Under the pieces are notes generated by a model. The model saw only the letters and a list, made by a program, of their open reading frames with translations, made no database searches and had not been told where the DNA came from. This document shows, one piece after another, positions 21,058-57,555 of a stretch of DNA of 64,000 nt. Made by a program: the position numbers and the translations under genes. The stretch lies in assembly GCA_000004985.1 (NCBI GenBank), contig GG738849.1; one strand, given 5' to 3'. This DNA is from Naegleria gruberi. Its lineage: Eukaryota. Position 1 is the stretch's first letter, and the number at the start of each line of letters is the position of its first letter.

Positions 21058-21749
21058 AGTAAAATTGTAGTAGAATCTTGTTTGTTTTTTTAGATTTGGT
21101 TTTTCTCTCAGAACGCAATCATCTCTCCAACTATTTATTCAAACCAGCACTCTCAGGAGTAGCACAAAATCAGCACATCGTACAGCAGATCATGATGCGT
21201 CCTGTTGCCAATTATTCGTTGATTGCATCCCGATATTACCAATGTGCAGAATTCATATAAACGTGATGGTATTATCCTCGAAAAAACCAAAAGAATTTTG
21301 CTTGACTGAAGATCGAGATGCAACAGCTTCAGTTTTGGCGAGATTCGAAAAACGAGAATCTATGCATTTTTTTGGGTTTTTACTTTGTTAGAAATTTGGC
21401 GCCAATTGATTGGTTGTTTGTGGCTACTATTTGGACAAGGAGAATAGTTGGTGGTTCTTTCAACAGTCAAAATGTCAAAAAATGTGTTTGTGTCCAAAAT
21501 AGAGAATTACTAAATGTTGTTCATTTGGATTTATTGAACTTGGTTGAGTTGCATTACAATGATTATTGAGTATTATTGGGAATTAATATTGTTGAGCAAG
21601 AGTTTATTTATATGATTAGTTTGGATTATTGATGCATTTATTCGAATCAAACATTCCAACAGCATACAACACGGATTTCCATTGCATGACAAGTTTTCAA
21701 TACAATATCAAATAAAACACTCAACGTTTACAATTTCATAATTGCAATT

Positions 21750-53008: not shown

Positions 53009-56000
53009 ATGTCTCAAAAACATCAACAGCATCAACAACCTCTCGCTCAAATTTCCATTCCCAGCAAATCGACACTCTACGCAACAGCCATCAAACAAAA
53101 TTCATCATCATCAAGAAATCCGAATATTGGCCAAAATGTTGCTGCTTCTTCTTCTTCATCATCAATTGTTGTAACACCTTCCACTCCATCAACTCCTTCA
53201 GCAAGTCCGAATTCATCAGCATCATCACTTGTTTTATCGGTGAGACCACTCTCTATTAATCAATGTGAATTGTCTAGTAGTAGTAGCTGTGGTAGTATTG
53301 GAGGAGTAGTTGGAGGAGGAGTTGGAGATTGTTTAAAAGAATTAATTAAACAATCGTCAATGAAATCAAATTCTTCGGTTTATGAAAATAATTACAAAAA
53401 GTTGGAAAATGATTTAAATGATATTTCATTTCTTGATTTGATTGAATGTAAATTGAATTGGTTGAAGGAAAAGAAGTTTTTTGATCATTATAATATATGT
53501 CAGGTTGTGGATTTAGTGTCAATGCCTCATTTGGATTCACATTTCAAGTACAAGACAAAGATTAGATTTTCCAGTGATGAATCGTCGAGTAATGTAGTGT
53601 TTGATCCATTTACTTGCTTTTTTGTGAGTTTGGAGAATAGAACTACACTTAGGAATGAAGTGGATTTTTGTAAAAAAGAAGGAAAGAGAGTGAGTGATGA
53701 TAGAGTTTACAAAATTGCTTCTCAATTGATGAGTACTGTACATTTTATGCACATGTTTGGGATTTTTCACACCATGTTATGTCCTGAATTGATTTGTATA
53801 GCTGATAATGTAGGTTTTTTATTGGAATAATTGATCATTTAATTCGAATTATAGGGTGATATCAAAGTGAAAGATGCCTTTTATTATCATATGGTTGTTT
53901 GGATTAATTCATCCCTTCAGACTCCCAATGTCTTCTTGAAGGAAGCTCGAGATTTTGAATTGTTTGTTCCATATTTGGCTCCTGAATTGTTTTCTTTGGC
54001 TTGCTATGAGGAGAATTATTTTCAAGATGTAAATAACAAGTGCGATATCTGGTCAATTGGTGTAATTTTATTGGAATTTATTTTAGGTAATAGAATACCA
54101 TTTCCTACACGTTTAGATACTAAGGATAAAACAAAAGAGGAATGGATTGAGTCGGCAATGAATATTTATTTGGATATTTTTGATTTTGTAGATTATTGTA
54201 AATATAGGGAGAATGTAGAAGAAACTGAAACTGAAACTCCAGACGATGCCAAATATAAGAATGCATGGAAGAGAATTCAAAGATTGGACAAATCACTCAG
54301 AGATTTATTATTCCACTGTTTGGCATTCAGACCAAGTGAAAGACCTGATATGGATTGGCTCATTGAGCAACCTTATTTCCAAACCATTTCAAAGGAACGA
54401 TTGGCTCACTACTCGTATAGAATTGCCAAATATCCACACCTGAAGAGTTTGGATGAAAAACCTCTAATTACCAATAAGAAGGAAGTTTCCATCACCTCTG
54501 GTACTCTCTCACCACTCCAGGAAAGACAAAACATGTTCAAGCAAAAGTACTTTGATTGGAAAAAGCTCTACGATGGAAAAATTAGTATATTCGATTTGTT
54601 TTACAGGAGAATATTTGACATGTCCATTGTACCTCACTTTTTCAGATATAATAAGAATTGTCCAGGTGATAAACTTCACATGAGCTATGCCAGCATCTCA
54701 CAAGCTCATGTCGATAGTTACCTATTGATTCCAATGAGCTACCTCGAGGAAGCTCTCACTCACATCAAACTCTACAATAATGATGCTCTGGGAATTAGAT
54801 CTGATACACCCGAAACACCAATCGACTCTCCAACAACAGTGGATGATCGATTGTATCCCTCACTCGTTCACGTCTCTGGTGATATTGGAAAGAAGAGAAG
54901 TCTCTACAATAAGGAAAACATTATGAATGGAAATACCAATACTTGGAATAGATTTTCTGCACTCATCACTGAGAAGGATATGAACTTTGCCTATCAGCAA
55001 AAGAGAGTTCACACCTTTAGAAAATTACTTCTCAGTTATCCATCGAGTAGGGAGGAGATTATCAGAGAGGCCAAGATTGATATTCCCTCAATTCTTAGAG
55101 GAGAAGTTTGGGCTGCCATCTTGGGAGTTGAAGAAGATTTGAAAGCTGAGGATATTTATACTAAAATTCTATTCGAATTACAAAAGCAACCACTCTCAAA
55201 TGTTACAAAACGACAAATTGGAGTAGATGTGCCCAGATGTCACCAATATAATCCACTTCTCCATTCCAAGATTGGTCATGAAAAATTGAGGAAAGTTCTC
55301 GAAGCATGGGTCTATTATCATAAGAATGAAGGACTCGTTTATTGGCAAGGTCTGGATTCATTGTGTGCTCCTCTCCTTGTGTTGAATTTTGACTTTGAAG
55401 CAAAGGCATTCTGTTGCCTTAAAGCCCTCGTCAATAAGTATACTCACGATTTTTTCACATCGAGAGCCAACTCAACTGCCATGGAAGAGAGATTGTCAGT
55501 ATTTAAAAAGTTGCACATGTATCATGATCCAGAGGTTGCCTCTCATTTGCATCACATTTCATTCCTTCCAGAATTGTATGCTATCAGTTGGTTCCTCACA
55601 CTCTTTGCTCACTCATTGCCAATTGAAAAATTATTCAAATTGTGGGATGCTCTCATTCTTGGAACACCTGAATTACCTGTTTTCATTGCAGTTGCCATTC
55701 TCAAACAAATGAGAAATAAGATTCTCGAATCGGATTTCAACAGTGCCATGTATCTATTCCAGAATATTCAAGGTGTTGACATTATTCAAGTATTGGACGA
55801 TACGAGAAGAATTCAAGAAAAGTCTCCAAGTGGTCTCACCAATCCAAAATTCTTCCAATCCAATCATTCTTTCCGTATCTCAATTGATGATTACAATAGA
55901 GAGTGTTTCTATCCGAGAATTACATTGGAAGATTTTGAAAATTCAACACTTTCGTCCATTTCTTTCATTGTGGACATTCGACCAATTGAGGATTACAAAC

Positions 56001-56347
56001 TAGATCACTATCCTTCAGCCAACCACATTTCCACTTTTATTTCCAACGATGAAGAATCACTCAATCTCTCTGCAAACAACCTATTCCAACACAATCTCAC
56101 TCAACTCACAACTGAACTCAACTTTAAGAAAGGTCTTGCCATCGTTGTAATGGCCCATTTGAATCAAACAGATCAATTACTCCAATTAGAACATGCCTTA
56201 ATGTTAGAATCGATACCATACGTTTCTATAGTCCTATTACATCCTCCAGAAAGTAGCGAATCATTGTCAACAGAGTACTCTGATCCAATCAGAGAACAAA
56301 CTCAAAATTCTGAACAAATTGCAATTGTTCAAGAAATTGGAAATTAA
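53009..56347 (+). CDS. TBCK: TBC domain-containing kinase-like protein: pseudokinase-like N-terminal region, Rab-GAP TBC domain, C-terminal rhodanese-like domain. Exons about 53009..53809 and 53855..56347.
   Basis: Kinase-like region (HTMLCPELI..., APELFSLACYEE..., DIWSIGVILLEFILG). TBC motifs IGVDVPRCH (IxxDxxR) and YWQGLDSLCAPLL (YxQ). Rhodanese-like IVDIRPIEDYKLDHYPSANHI. gtaggt...atag intron in phase 0. Confidence 0.7.
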
Positions 56348-56361
56348 ATTTACAAAAAAAA

Positions 56362-57555
56362 ATGAAACGATTTCAAGCTAGAAAGTTGGGCGCAATTTTT
56401 CCATTTTCTGCTTCTTCTTCTTCCAATAAATTGATAATGAAGAAGGAAATGATGAATAAATTAAATTCAAGTGAGAATTGTGTGATGGCTGCTGTTCCGA
56501 AATTAAATAATAATAGTAGTAATTATCATTATCATTATCATCAGCAGTTGCATTGGATGTTTTGGGAATTAAATAGTGTGCAGGGAAGTGTTAGGAATTA
56601 TGCAAAGAGTTTGAAGAAGAAATCAACAAGTAAAATAATAGTGAATAATCAAAAGTTGATGGAGAAGGAGAGAATAATTGAGGATTCAGTGAATGAGGAG
56701 GAAGAATCAGAGGAGGCCAATGTTGCACCATCAGTGATAATGGATGAAAAGACAATGGATGAAGAAGTGGAAAGGAATTCAAAATTGCAAACTCCACCTG
56801 GTTTGTATATTATTGCCACTCCGATTGGTAATTTGAATGATATTTCAGAGAGGGCTAAATTTGTGTTATCTCAATCGAATATGATTGCTTGTGAAGATAC
56901 GAGAACGACAAGGAAATTACTTCATTTTCATTCGTTGATTTCGGATCCTCCTCAGCAATTGATTAGTTTTGTGGAAAATAAGAATGCATCTGAGGTTTAT
57001 AGTCAATCTAAAAAGCATTTGAGCTTAATTTTGAATCGATTGACTAGCTCAAGTGATGTAGTATCGGTGGTTAGTGAATGTGGAAGTCCTTGTATTTCAG
57101 ATCCTGGTTGGATTCTAGTTAAGAATTGGTATGTGAAATATTTGAAAATTATATTAATTTTAAATAGTCATGAATTAGGAGTTCCTGTTTATTCAGTACC
57201 TGGTCCTAGCTCTATAATTGCAGCATTATCAATTAGTGGTTTCAATAGTAATAGATTTATTTTTGACGGCTTCTTACCAGCCATTCCAAAGAAGAGAAGG
57301 AAGTTGTTACAAGAACTTAGGGAAATACAAGGAAATCGTTGTGTTGTATTCTTTGAAAATCCAAACAGAATTAAGCAAACTTTAGCAGATTGTGTTGAAA
57401 TTTTTGGAGGTGATACACAAATTGCTCTTTGTTTTGAATTAACCAAACTCTTTGAGAGAATTCAAAAGGGAAAACTTTCAACAATTGAACGAGTAATGCG
57501 AAATGAAGATATTAAGGGTGAATGTACGATCATTATTGGCAACAATTCAGAATAG
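56362..57555 (+). CDS. RsmI-type (tetrapyrrole-methylase fold) rRNA 2'-O-methyltransferase with a roughly 150-aa N-terminal extension, probably organellar. Exons 56362..57128 and 57168..57555, with a 39-nt intron.
   Basis: GLYIIATPIGNLNDISERAKFVLSQSNMIACEDTRTTRKLL is the RsmI N-terminal motif. After removing gtatgt...aaatag, the spacing ISDPG-x20-VPGP matches bacterial RsmI. The start codon lies 14 nt after the TBCK stop. Confidence 0.7.
   Translation: MKRFQARKLGAIFPFSASSSSNKLIMKKEMMNKLNSSENCVMAAVPKLNNNSSNYHYHYHQQLHWMFWELNSVQGSVRNYAKSLKKKSTSKIIVNNQKLMEKERIIEDSVNEEEESEEANVAPSVIMDEKTMDEEVERNSKLQTPPGLYIIATPIGNLNDISERAKFVLSQSNMIACEDTRTTRKLLHFHSLISDPPQQLISFVENKNASEVYSQSKKHLSLILNRLTSSSDVVSVVSECGSPCISDPGWILVKNWYVKYLKIILILNSHELGVPVYSVPGPSSIIAALSISGFNSNRFIFDGFLPAIPKKRRKLLQELREIQGNRCVVFFENPNRIKQTLADCVEIFGGDTQIALCFELTKLFERIQKGKLSTIERVMRNEDIKGECTIIIGNNSE

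Follow-up and report, generated by a model that had tools for sequence, protein, structure and literature searches.

Overlapping transcription units or a dicistron? A 14-nt junction between a TBCK-like and an RsmI-like gene in Naegleria gruberi

How are two protein-coding genes expressed when the stop codon of the first is separated by only 14 nt from the first ATG of the second? This question is raised by a locus of Naegleria gruberi, at which a TBCK-like gene is followed on the same strand by a gene for an RsmI-like methyltransferase. A sequence-only reading of the region had offered two answers: either the promoter of the RsmI-like gene lies inside the TBCK coding sequence, or both genes are co-transcribed as a dicistronic RNA. 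The junction was analyzed within a window of 64 kb (64,000 nt of contig GG738849.1); all coordinates are positions in this window, and all features described lie on the plus strand.

Results

Layout of the junction

Direct reading of the sequence confirmed that the two open reading frames lie 14 nt apart on one strand, as had been claimed. The upstream open frame (53867..56347, 826 codons) ends with the TAA at 56345-56347, which is followed by the spacer ATTTACAAAAAAAA (56348..56361) and the ATG at 56362-56364. The A8 run in the spacer (56354-61) represents the canonical Naegleria start context. From this first ATG the RsmI-like frame stays open for 397 codons, up to the TAG at 57553-57555. 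It differs from the reading frame of TBCK, and the upstream in-frame stop lies just before 56314.

The other clear same-strand pairs in the window have gaps of 139-387 nt, and annotated tandem pairs at three related loci have gaps of 37-341 nt, including gaps of 37-98 nt. A distance of 14 nt is the extreme end of this compact spacing distribution. The coding sequences of convergent pairs in the window are separated by only 6 and 18 nt, and together with the 37-98 nt tandem gaps in relatives this suggests that transcript overlap is normal in the N. gruberi genome. The coding strand flips every 1-4 genes across the window, and long same-strand clusters are absent. Whether the true spacing at the junction is 14 nt or 137 nt depends on which start codon of the RsmI-like gene works, ATG 56362 or ATG 56485.

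Identity and structure of the two genes

Exon 1 of the TBCK-like gene (53009..53809) begins with ATG 53009 in the context ccaattaaaaaaATG, an A6ATG motif, and exon 2 (53855..56347) includes the stop codon. The 45-nt intron between them (53810..53854, GTAGGT...TATAG) contains stop codons, the alignment to the orthologues is continuous across it, and its excision yields an uninterrupted coding sequence of 1,097 codons. In tblastn searches with the TBCK-like proteins of N. lovaniensis and N. fowleri, the alignments run from 53342/53351 onward; identity to these proteins is 62% over ~985 residues, up to 56236. A kinase-like domain in the N-terminal part is followed by a RabGAP-TBC domain, which is the domain order of TBCK. 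In the Pfam search, the PF00069 match was partial (C-lobe, in exon 2), and PF00566, also in exon 2, was matched with an E value of 6e-41. Animal and fungal homologues named TBCK matched the protein with E values of about 1e-80. The proposed identity of the upstream gene thus holds, on the basis of the two domains and the identity to the Naegleria orthologues. The rhodanese-like C-terminal domain (PF00581), which is precomputed for most animal and fungal TBCK matches, was found neither in the window ORF by the Pfam search nor among the precomputed domains of Naegleria proteins, and a divergent remnant may exist. The protein database searched had no TBCK entry for N. gruberi, whatever the source, and the 1,097-codon gene appears to be missing from the public N. 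gruberi annotation.

The alignment to the orthologues stops at 56236, and the last 36 codons (56237..56344) form a non-conserved C-terminal tail. The orthologues terminate 5-13 codons past the conserved PYVS motif. The tail is the putative site of the promoter and the transcription start site (TSS) of the RsmI-like gene.

The RsmI-like gene consists of exon 1 (56362..57128, counted from M1 at ATG 56362) and exon 2 (57168..57555, including the stop codon TAG 57553-55), which continues the spliced frame. They are separated by an intron of 39 nt (57129..57167, GTATGT...TAG) that is in frame and free of stop codons. Its removal restores LVKNCHELGVPVY, which matches LVKSCHEYGVPVY of N. lovaniensis and LVKHCHEIGIPVF of Willaertia, and the N. 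fowleri gene has an intron at the equivalent position. The public model P0001 (XP_002681610, NAEGRDRAFT_46122; 356 aa) starts at M42 (ATG 56485) and translates, as 13 residues, what this comparison identifies as an intron. As it reads through the intron, the model is not cDNA-verified.

The assignment of the downstream gene to the RsmI type was likewise upheld. The intron-spliced protein of 384 aa scored 192.9 bits with TIGR00096, the RsmI equivalog model, which has a curated cut-off of 167.9; the match covers residues 148-382 and profile positions 2-222 of 275. PF00590 (TP_methylase) was matched from about residue 148 with an E value of 1.6e-18. In the region of the N-terminal RsmI motifs (G-x-Y-x-V-x-TPIGN and ACEDTR), PGLY..TPIGN and IACEDTR are invariant in comparison with bacterial RsmI. 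Solved chains were matched at E values of 7e-36 to 1e-35, namely 9pzg_V and 5hw4_A, both named RsmI, and 3kwp_A, named 'predicted methyltransferase'. The C-terminal RsmI domain PF23016 is absent from the Naegleria and Willaertia proteins, which have PF00590 only; it is present in many bacterial RsmI matches and missing from many others, and therefore it is not strictly defining. The product is predicted to be a bacterial-type 16S/12S rRNA 2'-O-methyltransferase (cytidine-1402 in RsmI).

TBCK is followed by the RsmI-like gene also in N. lovaniensis (48 nt), in the environmental Naegleria-like contig L003 (43 nt), and in N. fowleri (142 nt), while the adjacency is absent in Willaertia. The junction belongs to a syntenic block with the order E1 enzyme, EF-hand, TBCK, RsmI. 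Two scans of metagenomes, with a single sequence and with an alignment, revealed no further Naegleria TBCK junctions.

The start codon of the RsmI-like gene

Downstream of ATG 56362, in-frame ATGs occur at 56437, 56449, 56452, and 56485 (M42, the public start). All five share one frame, and there is no out-of-frame ATG between the first and the last. Start contexts were compared for 23 starts in the window and 32 annotated starts of relatives; in both groups A dominates positions -1 to -5. The context tttACAAAAAAAA-ATG at 56362 is the canonical Naegleria start context, whereas that of ATG 56485 (ttgtgtgATG) lacks A from -8 to -1 and lies outside the range of Naegleria start contexts. The A6ATG motif occurs only 15 times on both strands of the window, and in nine cases, including the start of TBCK, an ORF with 90 codons or more has its first ATG in the motif; the background is 12% of all window ATGs opening such an ORF.

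No stop interrupts the 41 codons between M1 and M42, and the other two frames have 8 and 4 stops. If M42 were the start, an in-frame A8-ATG that is the first ATG and is followed by 41 open codons would be a coincidence with a probability of roughly 1e-3 to 1e-2, as estimated from the frequency of the A6ATG motif and the stop-free rate. The codon-usage LLR of codons 1-41 is 3.1, which is typical of N-terminal coding windows, yet it is reached by 20% of stop-free non-coding windows and thus does not discriminate.

The first 30 residues from M1 have a net charge of +6 and include two Arg, whereas acidic residues are absent up to position 28; the N-termini of the RsmI-like orthologues have net charges of +3 to +6. 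The N-terminus from M42, in contrast, has a net charge of 0 and lacks Arg, unlike the orthologues or a mitochondrial presequence. Local alignments with shuffles of the N-termini from M1, M26, and M42 against those of four orthologues revealed no significant similarity (p 0.37-0.99). A likeness seen by eye between MKRFQARKL and LKHKTARFL was therefore not taken as evidence. Judged from the sequence, translation most likely starts at ATG 56362, and the start of the public model is probably wrong. The basic N-terminus, as the one indication, suggests that the protein is targeted to mitochondria.

Poly(A) signals and promoter motifs

TBCK TAA occupies positions 3-5 of an ATTAAA hexamer (56343..56348), which starts 19 nt before ATG 56362 and is a candidate dual-use stop/poly(A) signal. 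The identical register is found in contig L003 (ATTAAA at 3467-72 over TAA at 3469-71). Dual-use sites have been described for N. gruberi and Giardia (PMC11529991, Genome Res 2024): in N. gruberi, AAUAAA has this dual use at 11-13% of the stop codons, with a median 3'UTR of 22 nt there. In the window, AATAAA dual-use stops were found in 3 of 29 cases. The TBCK stop has the same position within the hexamer as in the published AAUAAA sites, but the hexamer is AUUAAA, which is weaker and common in coding sequence (PMC11529991), and the stronger AAUAAA sits 78 and 108 nt downstream.

These two AATAAA (56425-30 and 56455-60, 64 and 94 nt past ATG 56362) form a cluster with an ATTAAA at 56460-65 (56425..56465), which is followed by the GU-rich TTGTGTG at 56478-84. 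The coding sequence of the window (40.6 kb) contains AATAAA just twice, versus about 62 expected, a depletion of about 30-fold. The pyrimidine-rich tract TTTTTCCATTTTCTGCTTCTTCTTCTTCC in the 5' part of the RsmI-like ORF (56396..56424) may serve as the downstream element of the ATTAAA at 56343; a U-rich element of this kind has been reported for N. gruberi (PMC11529991). A UGUA upstream element was not present near any of the candidate hexamers at the junction. In N. fowleri, the TBCK stop is followed by AATAAA at +103 and ATG at +143, so that the hexamer starts 40 nt before the RsmI-like ATG. In N. lovaniensis, an AATAAA lies 3 nt before the ATG; its status as a poly(A) signal is unclear, because AATAAA at -8/-9 recurs in the A-rich start motif far from upstream stops.

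Candidate 3'-end signals of the upstream gene are therefore situated at and inside the 5' region of the downstream gene, as expected for overlapping units. The median 3'UTR of N. gruberi is 39 nt, and AAUAAA lies 15-20 nt before the cleavage site (PMC11529991). With these values, the 3' end of the TBCK mRNA most likely falls at or within the RsmI-like ORF, so that the transcripts would overlap even without a dicistron. As overlap and co-transcription would both give a positive result, RT-PCR across the junction cannot discriminate between them.

When k-mers were searched in the sequences preceding 22 starts of the window and 29 annotated starts, neither a definable positional promoter motif nor a TATA box was found. 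TTAAA is diffusely enriched upstream of the N. gruberi starts, but not of the relatives' starts. GGCGCC was discarded as a promoter motif of the junction; it is an E2F-like site unrelated to it. The collections searched contained no transcript-derived N. gruberi contig or protein for either gene, and no contig encoding the 397-aa ORF or the 356-aa model.

Discussion

We consider the chance somewhat better than even that TBCK and the RsmI-like gene are expressed independently of each other, from overlapping same-strand transcription units. We infer that both the start motif at ATG 56362 and the AATAAA signals inside the ORF are real. The promoter and TSS of the RsmI-like gene would be very compact and would lie in the rapidly evolving end (~100 nt) of the TBCK coding sequence, together with the A-rich 14-nt spacer. 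Translation would start at ATG 56362 and yield a mitochondrion-targeted 16S/12S rRNA 2'-O-methyltransferase. The TBCK mRNA would be cleaved and polyadenylated separately, via the stop-containing ATTAAA with a predicted 3' end at about 56358-56375, and/or via the AATAAA at +78 and +108 with a predicted 3' end at about 56445-56480. In both cases it would end in the RsmI-like ORF, within its first ~10-130 nt, and each protein would be made from its own capped mRNA. Of the two answers given by the sequence-only reading, a promoter inside the TBCK coding sequence is thus favored, in accordance with the non-conserved tail at 56237-56344. The choice itself was incomplete, as it left out the doubt over the start codon (the public model uses ATG 56485, and two AATAAA separate the two ATGs) and the placement of TBCK 3'-end formation.

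The overlap has a cost. An RsmI-like mRNA that begins before 56362 has two AATAAA and one ATTAAA in its first ~100 nt, and since AATAAA is purged from coding sequence, such 5' hexamers are hard to reconcile with an mRNA encoding M1, unless promoter-proximal signals are ignored. Initiation at ATG 56485, or possibly at one of the ATGs at 56437-56452, would avoid this problem. The gap of 14 nt would then be an artefact of ORF extension, and 137 nt would separate the genes, a spacing that is ordinary for Naegleria and agrees with the other tandem pairs (125-390 nt). These 137 nt would be the TBCK 3'UTR and contain its AATAAA signals, with the RsmI-like TSS no more than ~25 nt upstream of ATG 56485. 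The two AATAAA, the ATTAAA, and the GU-rich stretch at 56425-56484 would be expected in a 3'UTR, whereas AATAAA is nearly absent from coding sequence; the N. fowleri layout is almost as predicted for this start; and the stretch between AATAAA and the first conserved RsmI anchor (Y[AS]KS), computed by hand, has a similar length in three species (144-187 nt). The public model XP_002681610 uses this start, but the same model also translates the 39-nt intron. The start context, the uncharged N-terminus, and the coincidence that would be required at ATG 56362 all argue against M42. Furthermore, the predicted TBCK cleavage sites would still be 5-25 nt from ATG 56485, so that the units would abut or overlap anyway. 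We therefore regard initiation at M42 as possible, but doubtful.

A rather improbable compromise is that both starts are used. Alternative TSSs would produce a long, mitochondrial isoform from M1 and a shorter one from M42 or M26-31, and the choices of the TBCK poly(A) site and of the RsmI-like start would affect each other by transcriptional interference or attenuation. This would account for poly(A) hexamers and a start motif that both look real, and for five in-frame ATGs (56362-56485) without an out-of-frame one. It is reasoned purely by inference, and no Naegleria precedent was found in the literature searched.

A functional dicistron is unlikely. A genuine dicistronic mRNA would arise at the TBCK promoter, and translation of the RsmI-like ORF from the shared RNA would proceed by termination-reinitiation over the 14-nt spacer, by internal entry on the A-rich leader, or after trans-splicing of an undescribed kind. 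The short spacing speaks for it, as do the adjacency kept in four genomes of the Naegleria clade (spacers of 14-142 nt) and the position of Naegleria in Discoba, which includes the polycistronic Euglenozoa. As the pair lies within a larger Naegleria syntenic block, though, conserved adjacency needs no operon, and the adjacency is absent in Willaertia. Reinitiation is very inefficient after long ORFs such as one of 1,097 codons, and leaky scanning past a coding sequence of this length with 64 ATG triplets and a strong A6ATG start context is excluded. Poly(A) hexamers are present at the junction in every species compared, and the four species do not share a consistent polypyrimidine-AG acceptor upstream of the ATG. 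In Heterolobosea, a directon contains about 2 genes, spacers are equal within and between directons, and expression is regarded as monocistronic (bioRxiv 10.64898/2026.07.29.740908), in line with the earlier remark that this lineage is one in which a dicistron would be unusual. In N. fowleri, expression of two ORFs from a single transcript required a T2A peptide (PMC12845041). In view of these points, we judge translation from a shared mRNA to be very improbable. A fusion of TBCK and RsmI by readthrough or frameshift was also rejected, because the two ORFs are in different frames in N. gruberi, the N. lovaniensis sequence has in-frame stops between them, and the annotation lists the orthologues as separate genes. 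The searches made retrieved no direct data on Naegleria polycistrons, dicistrons, overlapping transcripts, TSSs, or UTRs.

The junction can be compared with several known systems. In the compact genomes of microsporidia (e.g. Encephalitozoon), nucleomorphs, Giardia, and Entamoeba, coding sequences are likewise separated by a few to tens of nt, UTRs are ultrashort, and the 3'-end signals of one gene lie in or beside its neighbor, as at TBCK-RsmI; translation is still presumed to be monocistronic. Naegleria, in contrast to the compact parasites, is a free-living amoeba that is not reduced, with a genome reportedly of 41 Mb, and the TBCK-RsmI-like pair is an outlier in it, not the rule. Descriptions of transcript overlap in Naegleria were not found in the literature searched. 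Euglenozoa, the polycistronic sister lineage of Heterolobosea within Discoba, share with Naegleria same-strand neighbors and short spacers, but their polycistrons are trans-spliced with a spliced leader (SL); long directional clusters are missing from the window, the RsmI-like ATG is not preceded by a conserved acceptor-like motif, and Heterolobosea are not known to have a spliced leader. In the bicistronic loci of green algae, the upstream ORFs are short and AUG-poor, whereas the TBCK ORF is long and rich in ATG triplets and poly(A) signals are found at the junction. Two reports on these nuclear loci (PMC7896298, PMC11892635) describe translation by leaky scanning, and, as at the Naegleria junction, same-strand ORFs with a very short spacer and an adjacency conserved between species.

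Tentatively, and with less confidence than we place in the overlap itself, it can be proposed that in the N. gruberi lineage the RsmI-like start codon moved 123 nt upstream into the TBCK 3'UTR. One stretch of RNA would then be both the TBCK polyadenylation region and the code for a mitochondrial presequence, and TBCK 3'-end processing would be coupled to RsmI-like expression, as a full-length RsmI-like mRNA would have to pass the AAUAAA signals of TBCK in its first 100 nt.

For the public N. gruberi annotation, the results mean that a TBCK-like gene is apparently absent, that the RsmI-like model probably starts at the wrong codon, and that this model includes a 39-nt intron in its translation. 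Genome-wide calling of starts and 3' ends could be improved by two simple rules, the A-run start motif and the scarcity of AATAAA in coding sequence. If the overlap is real, the junction would be a natural test case for the minimal size of a promoter and 5'UTR in a free-living discoban, for whether promoter-proximal AAUAAA signals are ignored, and for the limit of gene packing without polycistrons in a lineage that is sister to the polycistronic Euglenozoa.

Structure of the TBCK-RsmI junction

The window is gene-dense nuclear DNA with a G+C content of about 34%. Direct reading of the bases confirmed the 14 nt between the TBCK stop and ATG 56362 that had been noticed in the sequence-only reading. 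An open frame of 826 codons ends with a TAA at 56345-56347, which is followed by the spacer ATTTACAAAAAAAA and, on the same strand and in a different reading frame, by a frame of 397 codons opening with ATG 56362.

The upstream TBCK-like gene was modeled on the plus strand from ATG 53009 to the stop codon at 56345-56347, with a 45-nt intron (53810-53854) and 1,097 codons. The protein combines a protein-kinase domain, of which the C-lobe is present, with a RabGAP-TBC domain, and shares 62% identity with its TBCK-like counterparts in N. lovaniensis and N. fowleri across about 985 residues. Conservation stops at 56236, and the final 36 codons form a lineage-specific tail; the orthologues end 5–13 codons past the conserved PYVS motif. 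No identical protein was found in a collection of 5.8 billion sequences, and therefore, the public N. gruberi annotation seems to lack this gene, although its orthologues in N. lovaniensis, N. fowleri, and Willaertia are all annotated.

The downstream ORF matches the predicted N. gruberi protein XP_002681610 (NAEGRDRAFT_46122) at 100% identity and carries PF00590. The public model translates a 39-nt intron (57129-57167, plus strand, GTATGT...TAG, in frame and stop-free), resulting in 13 additional residues (NWYVKYLKIILIL-) that are missing from all homologues. Excision restores the conserved K-x-C-H-E motif (LVKNCHELG), and in the N. fowleri gene, too, an intron occupies this position. The spliced protein of 384 aa scored 192.9 bits, above the RsmI equivalog cut-off of 167.9, and matched solved RsmI structures with E ~1e-35. 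The nearest relatives outside Heterolobosea are alphaproteobacterial RsmI proteins (~42% identity). About 145 residues stand before the catalytic domain, and the heterolobosean proteins (window 56362-57555; P0002 and P0003) share a long, basic N-terminal extension and lack the bacterial C-terminal PF23016 domain. Heterolobosea retain a bacterial-type RsmI, which presumably acts as a mitochondrial small-subunit rRNA 2'-O-methyltransferase.

The start codon of the RsmI-like gene

The public model starts at ATG 56485, an alternative that the sequence-only reading had missed and that would widen the gap to 137 nt. Naegleria start codons are typically preceded by an A-run (...ACAAAAAAA-ATG), with A dominant at −1 to −5 in 23 starts of the window and 32 annotated starts of relatives. 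The context is strong throughout the window and in N. lovaniensis, Willaertia magna, and N. fowleri: C or T, then A, then five to eight A, then ATG. A6ATG is found just 15 times in the window, counting both strands, and is a highly specific gene-start marker; in nine cases, the TBCK start and 56362 among them, it is the first ATG in an ORF of 90 codons or more. An A6–A8 run precedes the RsmI-like ATG in every genome with an adjacent TBCK.

ATG 56362 fits this motif perfectly, whereas ATG 56485 (ttgtgtgATG) does not. The 41 codons between the two contain no stop, and the other two frames contain 8 and 4. From ATG 56362, the first 30 residues have a net charge of +6, with two Arg, and acidic residues appear no earlier than position 29; the orthologues range from +3 to +6, and a start at ATG 56485 would yield a net charge of 0, so that only the longer N-terminus is basic. 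Neither the N-terminal alignment to the orthologues (p 0.4–0.9) nor the codon-usage likelihood discriminated between the starts. On the side of ATG 56485, the intervening stretch contains AATAAA at 56425 and 56455, although this hexamer is nearly absent from coding sequence in the window, together with ATTAAA at 56460 and a GU-rich stretch. The corresponding layout in N. fowleri likewise has AATAAA at +103 and an ATG at +143. In rough likelihood ratios, ATG 56362 was provisionally favored, by a factor of about two to three.

Only six GGCGCC motifs (11936, 14063, 21398, 40227, 60484, and 61022) were found in the 64-kb window, all outside long ORFs; they may be promoter elements of cell-cycle genes. 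In five, the flanking bases are E2F-like and rich in T and/or A (TTTGGCGCC, GGCGCCAAA; 11936 less clearly). Two precede start codons by exactly 30 nt (ATG 11911, minus strand; ATG 40257, plus strand), and one precedes the A6ATG at 21367 (minus strand) by about 36 nt.

Poly(A) signals and gene order

The poly(A) signal of N. gruberi is AAUAAA, which is shunned in coding sequence and lies 15–20 nt ahead of cleavage; the median 3'-UTR is 39 nt, and about 11–13% of the stop codons lie within the hexamer (PMC11529991). The window matched these genome-wide figures: in the sense strand of its long ORFs (40.6 kb), AATAAA was found twice versus about 62 expected from composition, a depletion of about 30-fold (ATTAAA only about 2.6-fold, 20 observed), and 3 of 29 stops were dual-use AATAAA stops. 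The TBCK TAA forms positions 3–5 of an ATTAAA (56343-56348), an arrangement with an identical register in the environmental Naegleria-like contig, and a pyrimidine-rich tract (56396-56424) lies downstream of the predicted cleavage zone. AATAAA at −8/−9 of an ATG recurs as part of the start motif (window 60579; N. lovaniensis contig L001, 10001 and 18555; N. fowleri contig L004, 22336), and thus, a hexamer at this position is not necessarily a poly(A) signal.

Compared with 14 nt in N. gruberi, the distance from the TBCK stop to the RsmI-like ATG is 43 nt in the environmental contig, 48 nt in N. lovaniensis, with an in-frame TAA right before the ATG, and 142 nt in N. fowleri. In Willaertia magna, the genes are not adjacent; the RsmI-like gene is in another location, and the TBCK orthologue (P0123) is on a different contig. 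The 3.4 kb 5' of the Willaertia RsmI-like gene (L002, 6600-10000) contain no called gene and one 106-codon ORF, which is unusual for such compact genomes. In Naegleria, gene order is conserved beyond the pair itself (E1 enzyme, EF-hand, TBCK, RsmI-like), and therefore, the conserved adjacency needs no operon.

Dicistronic RNA or overlapping transcription units

The sequence-only reading had proposed either a promoter within TBCK coding sequence or a dicistronic RNA. The former is likely, and a functional dicistron is very improbable. The upstream coding sequence of 1,097 codons contains 64 ATG triplets, which excludes leaky scanning, and reinitiation after such a long coding sequence is implausible. 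Moreover, poly(A) hexamers are present at the junction in all species, and no acceptor-like motif common to the species was found before the downstream ATG. The pair did not pass the tests for a trans-spliced operon or for a leaky-scanning bicistron. Heterolobosea have been described as monocistronic, with about two genes per directon (bioRxiv 10.64898/2026.07.29.740908), and for Naegleria, a literature search retrieved no description of transcripts that are polycistronic or overlap; in N. fowleri, a T2A peptide was used to express two ORFs from a single transcript (PMC12845041).

Both sets of signals at the junction, those of the start context and those for poly(A), appear functional, and an overlap of the two transcription units would reconcile them. 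The ATTAAA at 56343-56348 is predicted to direct TBCK cleavage at about 56358-56375, at the RsmI-like ATG, and the AATAAA copies at about 56445-56480. With either choice, the TBCK mRNA would end at or within the RsmI-like ORF, and thus, RsmI-like transcription would have to start in the TBCK tail or the spacer. Because every model predicts overlapping or read-through RNA at the junction, RT-PCR across it would not discriminate between the models.

Overlapping units fit a genome in which convergent long ORFs have stops only 6 nt (16818/16825) or 18 nt (10054/10073) apart, so that 3'-UTRs of median length run antisense into the neighbor's coding sequence, and in relatives, annotated tandem gaps can be as small as 37–98 nt. 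It is possible, if doubtful, that the RsmI-like start codon migrated into the TBCK 3'-UTR, so that a single RNA segment would serve TBCK as its polyadenylation region and at the same time encode a mitochondrial presequence. In this reading, the arrangement resembles that of other compact protist genomes, whose transcription units overlap or abut, and the TBCK stop relates it to the dual-use stop/poly(A) signals known from N. gruberi. In a lineage without documented transcript overlap, the TBCK-RsmI pair is a fresh example of this known packing.
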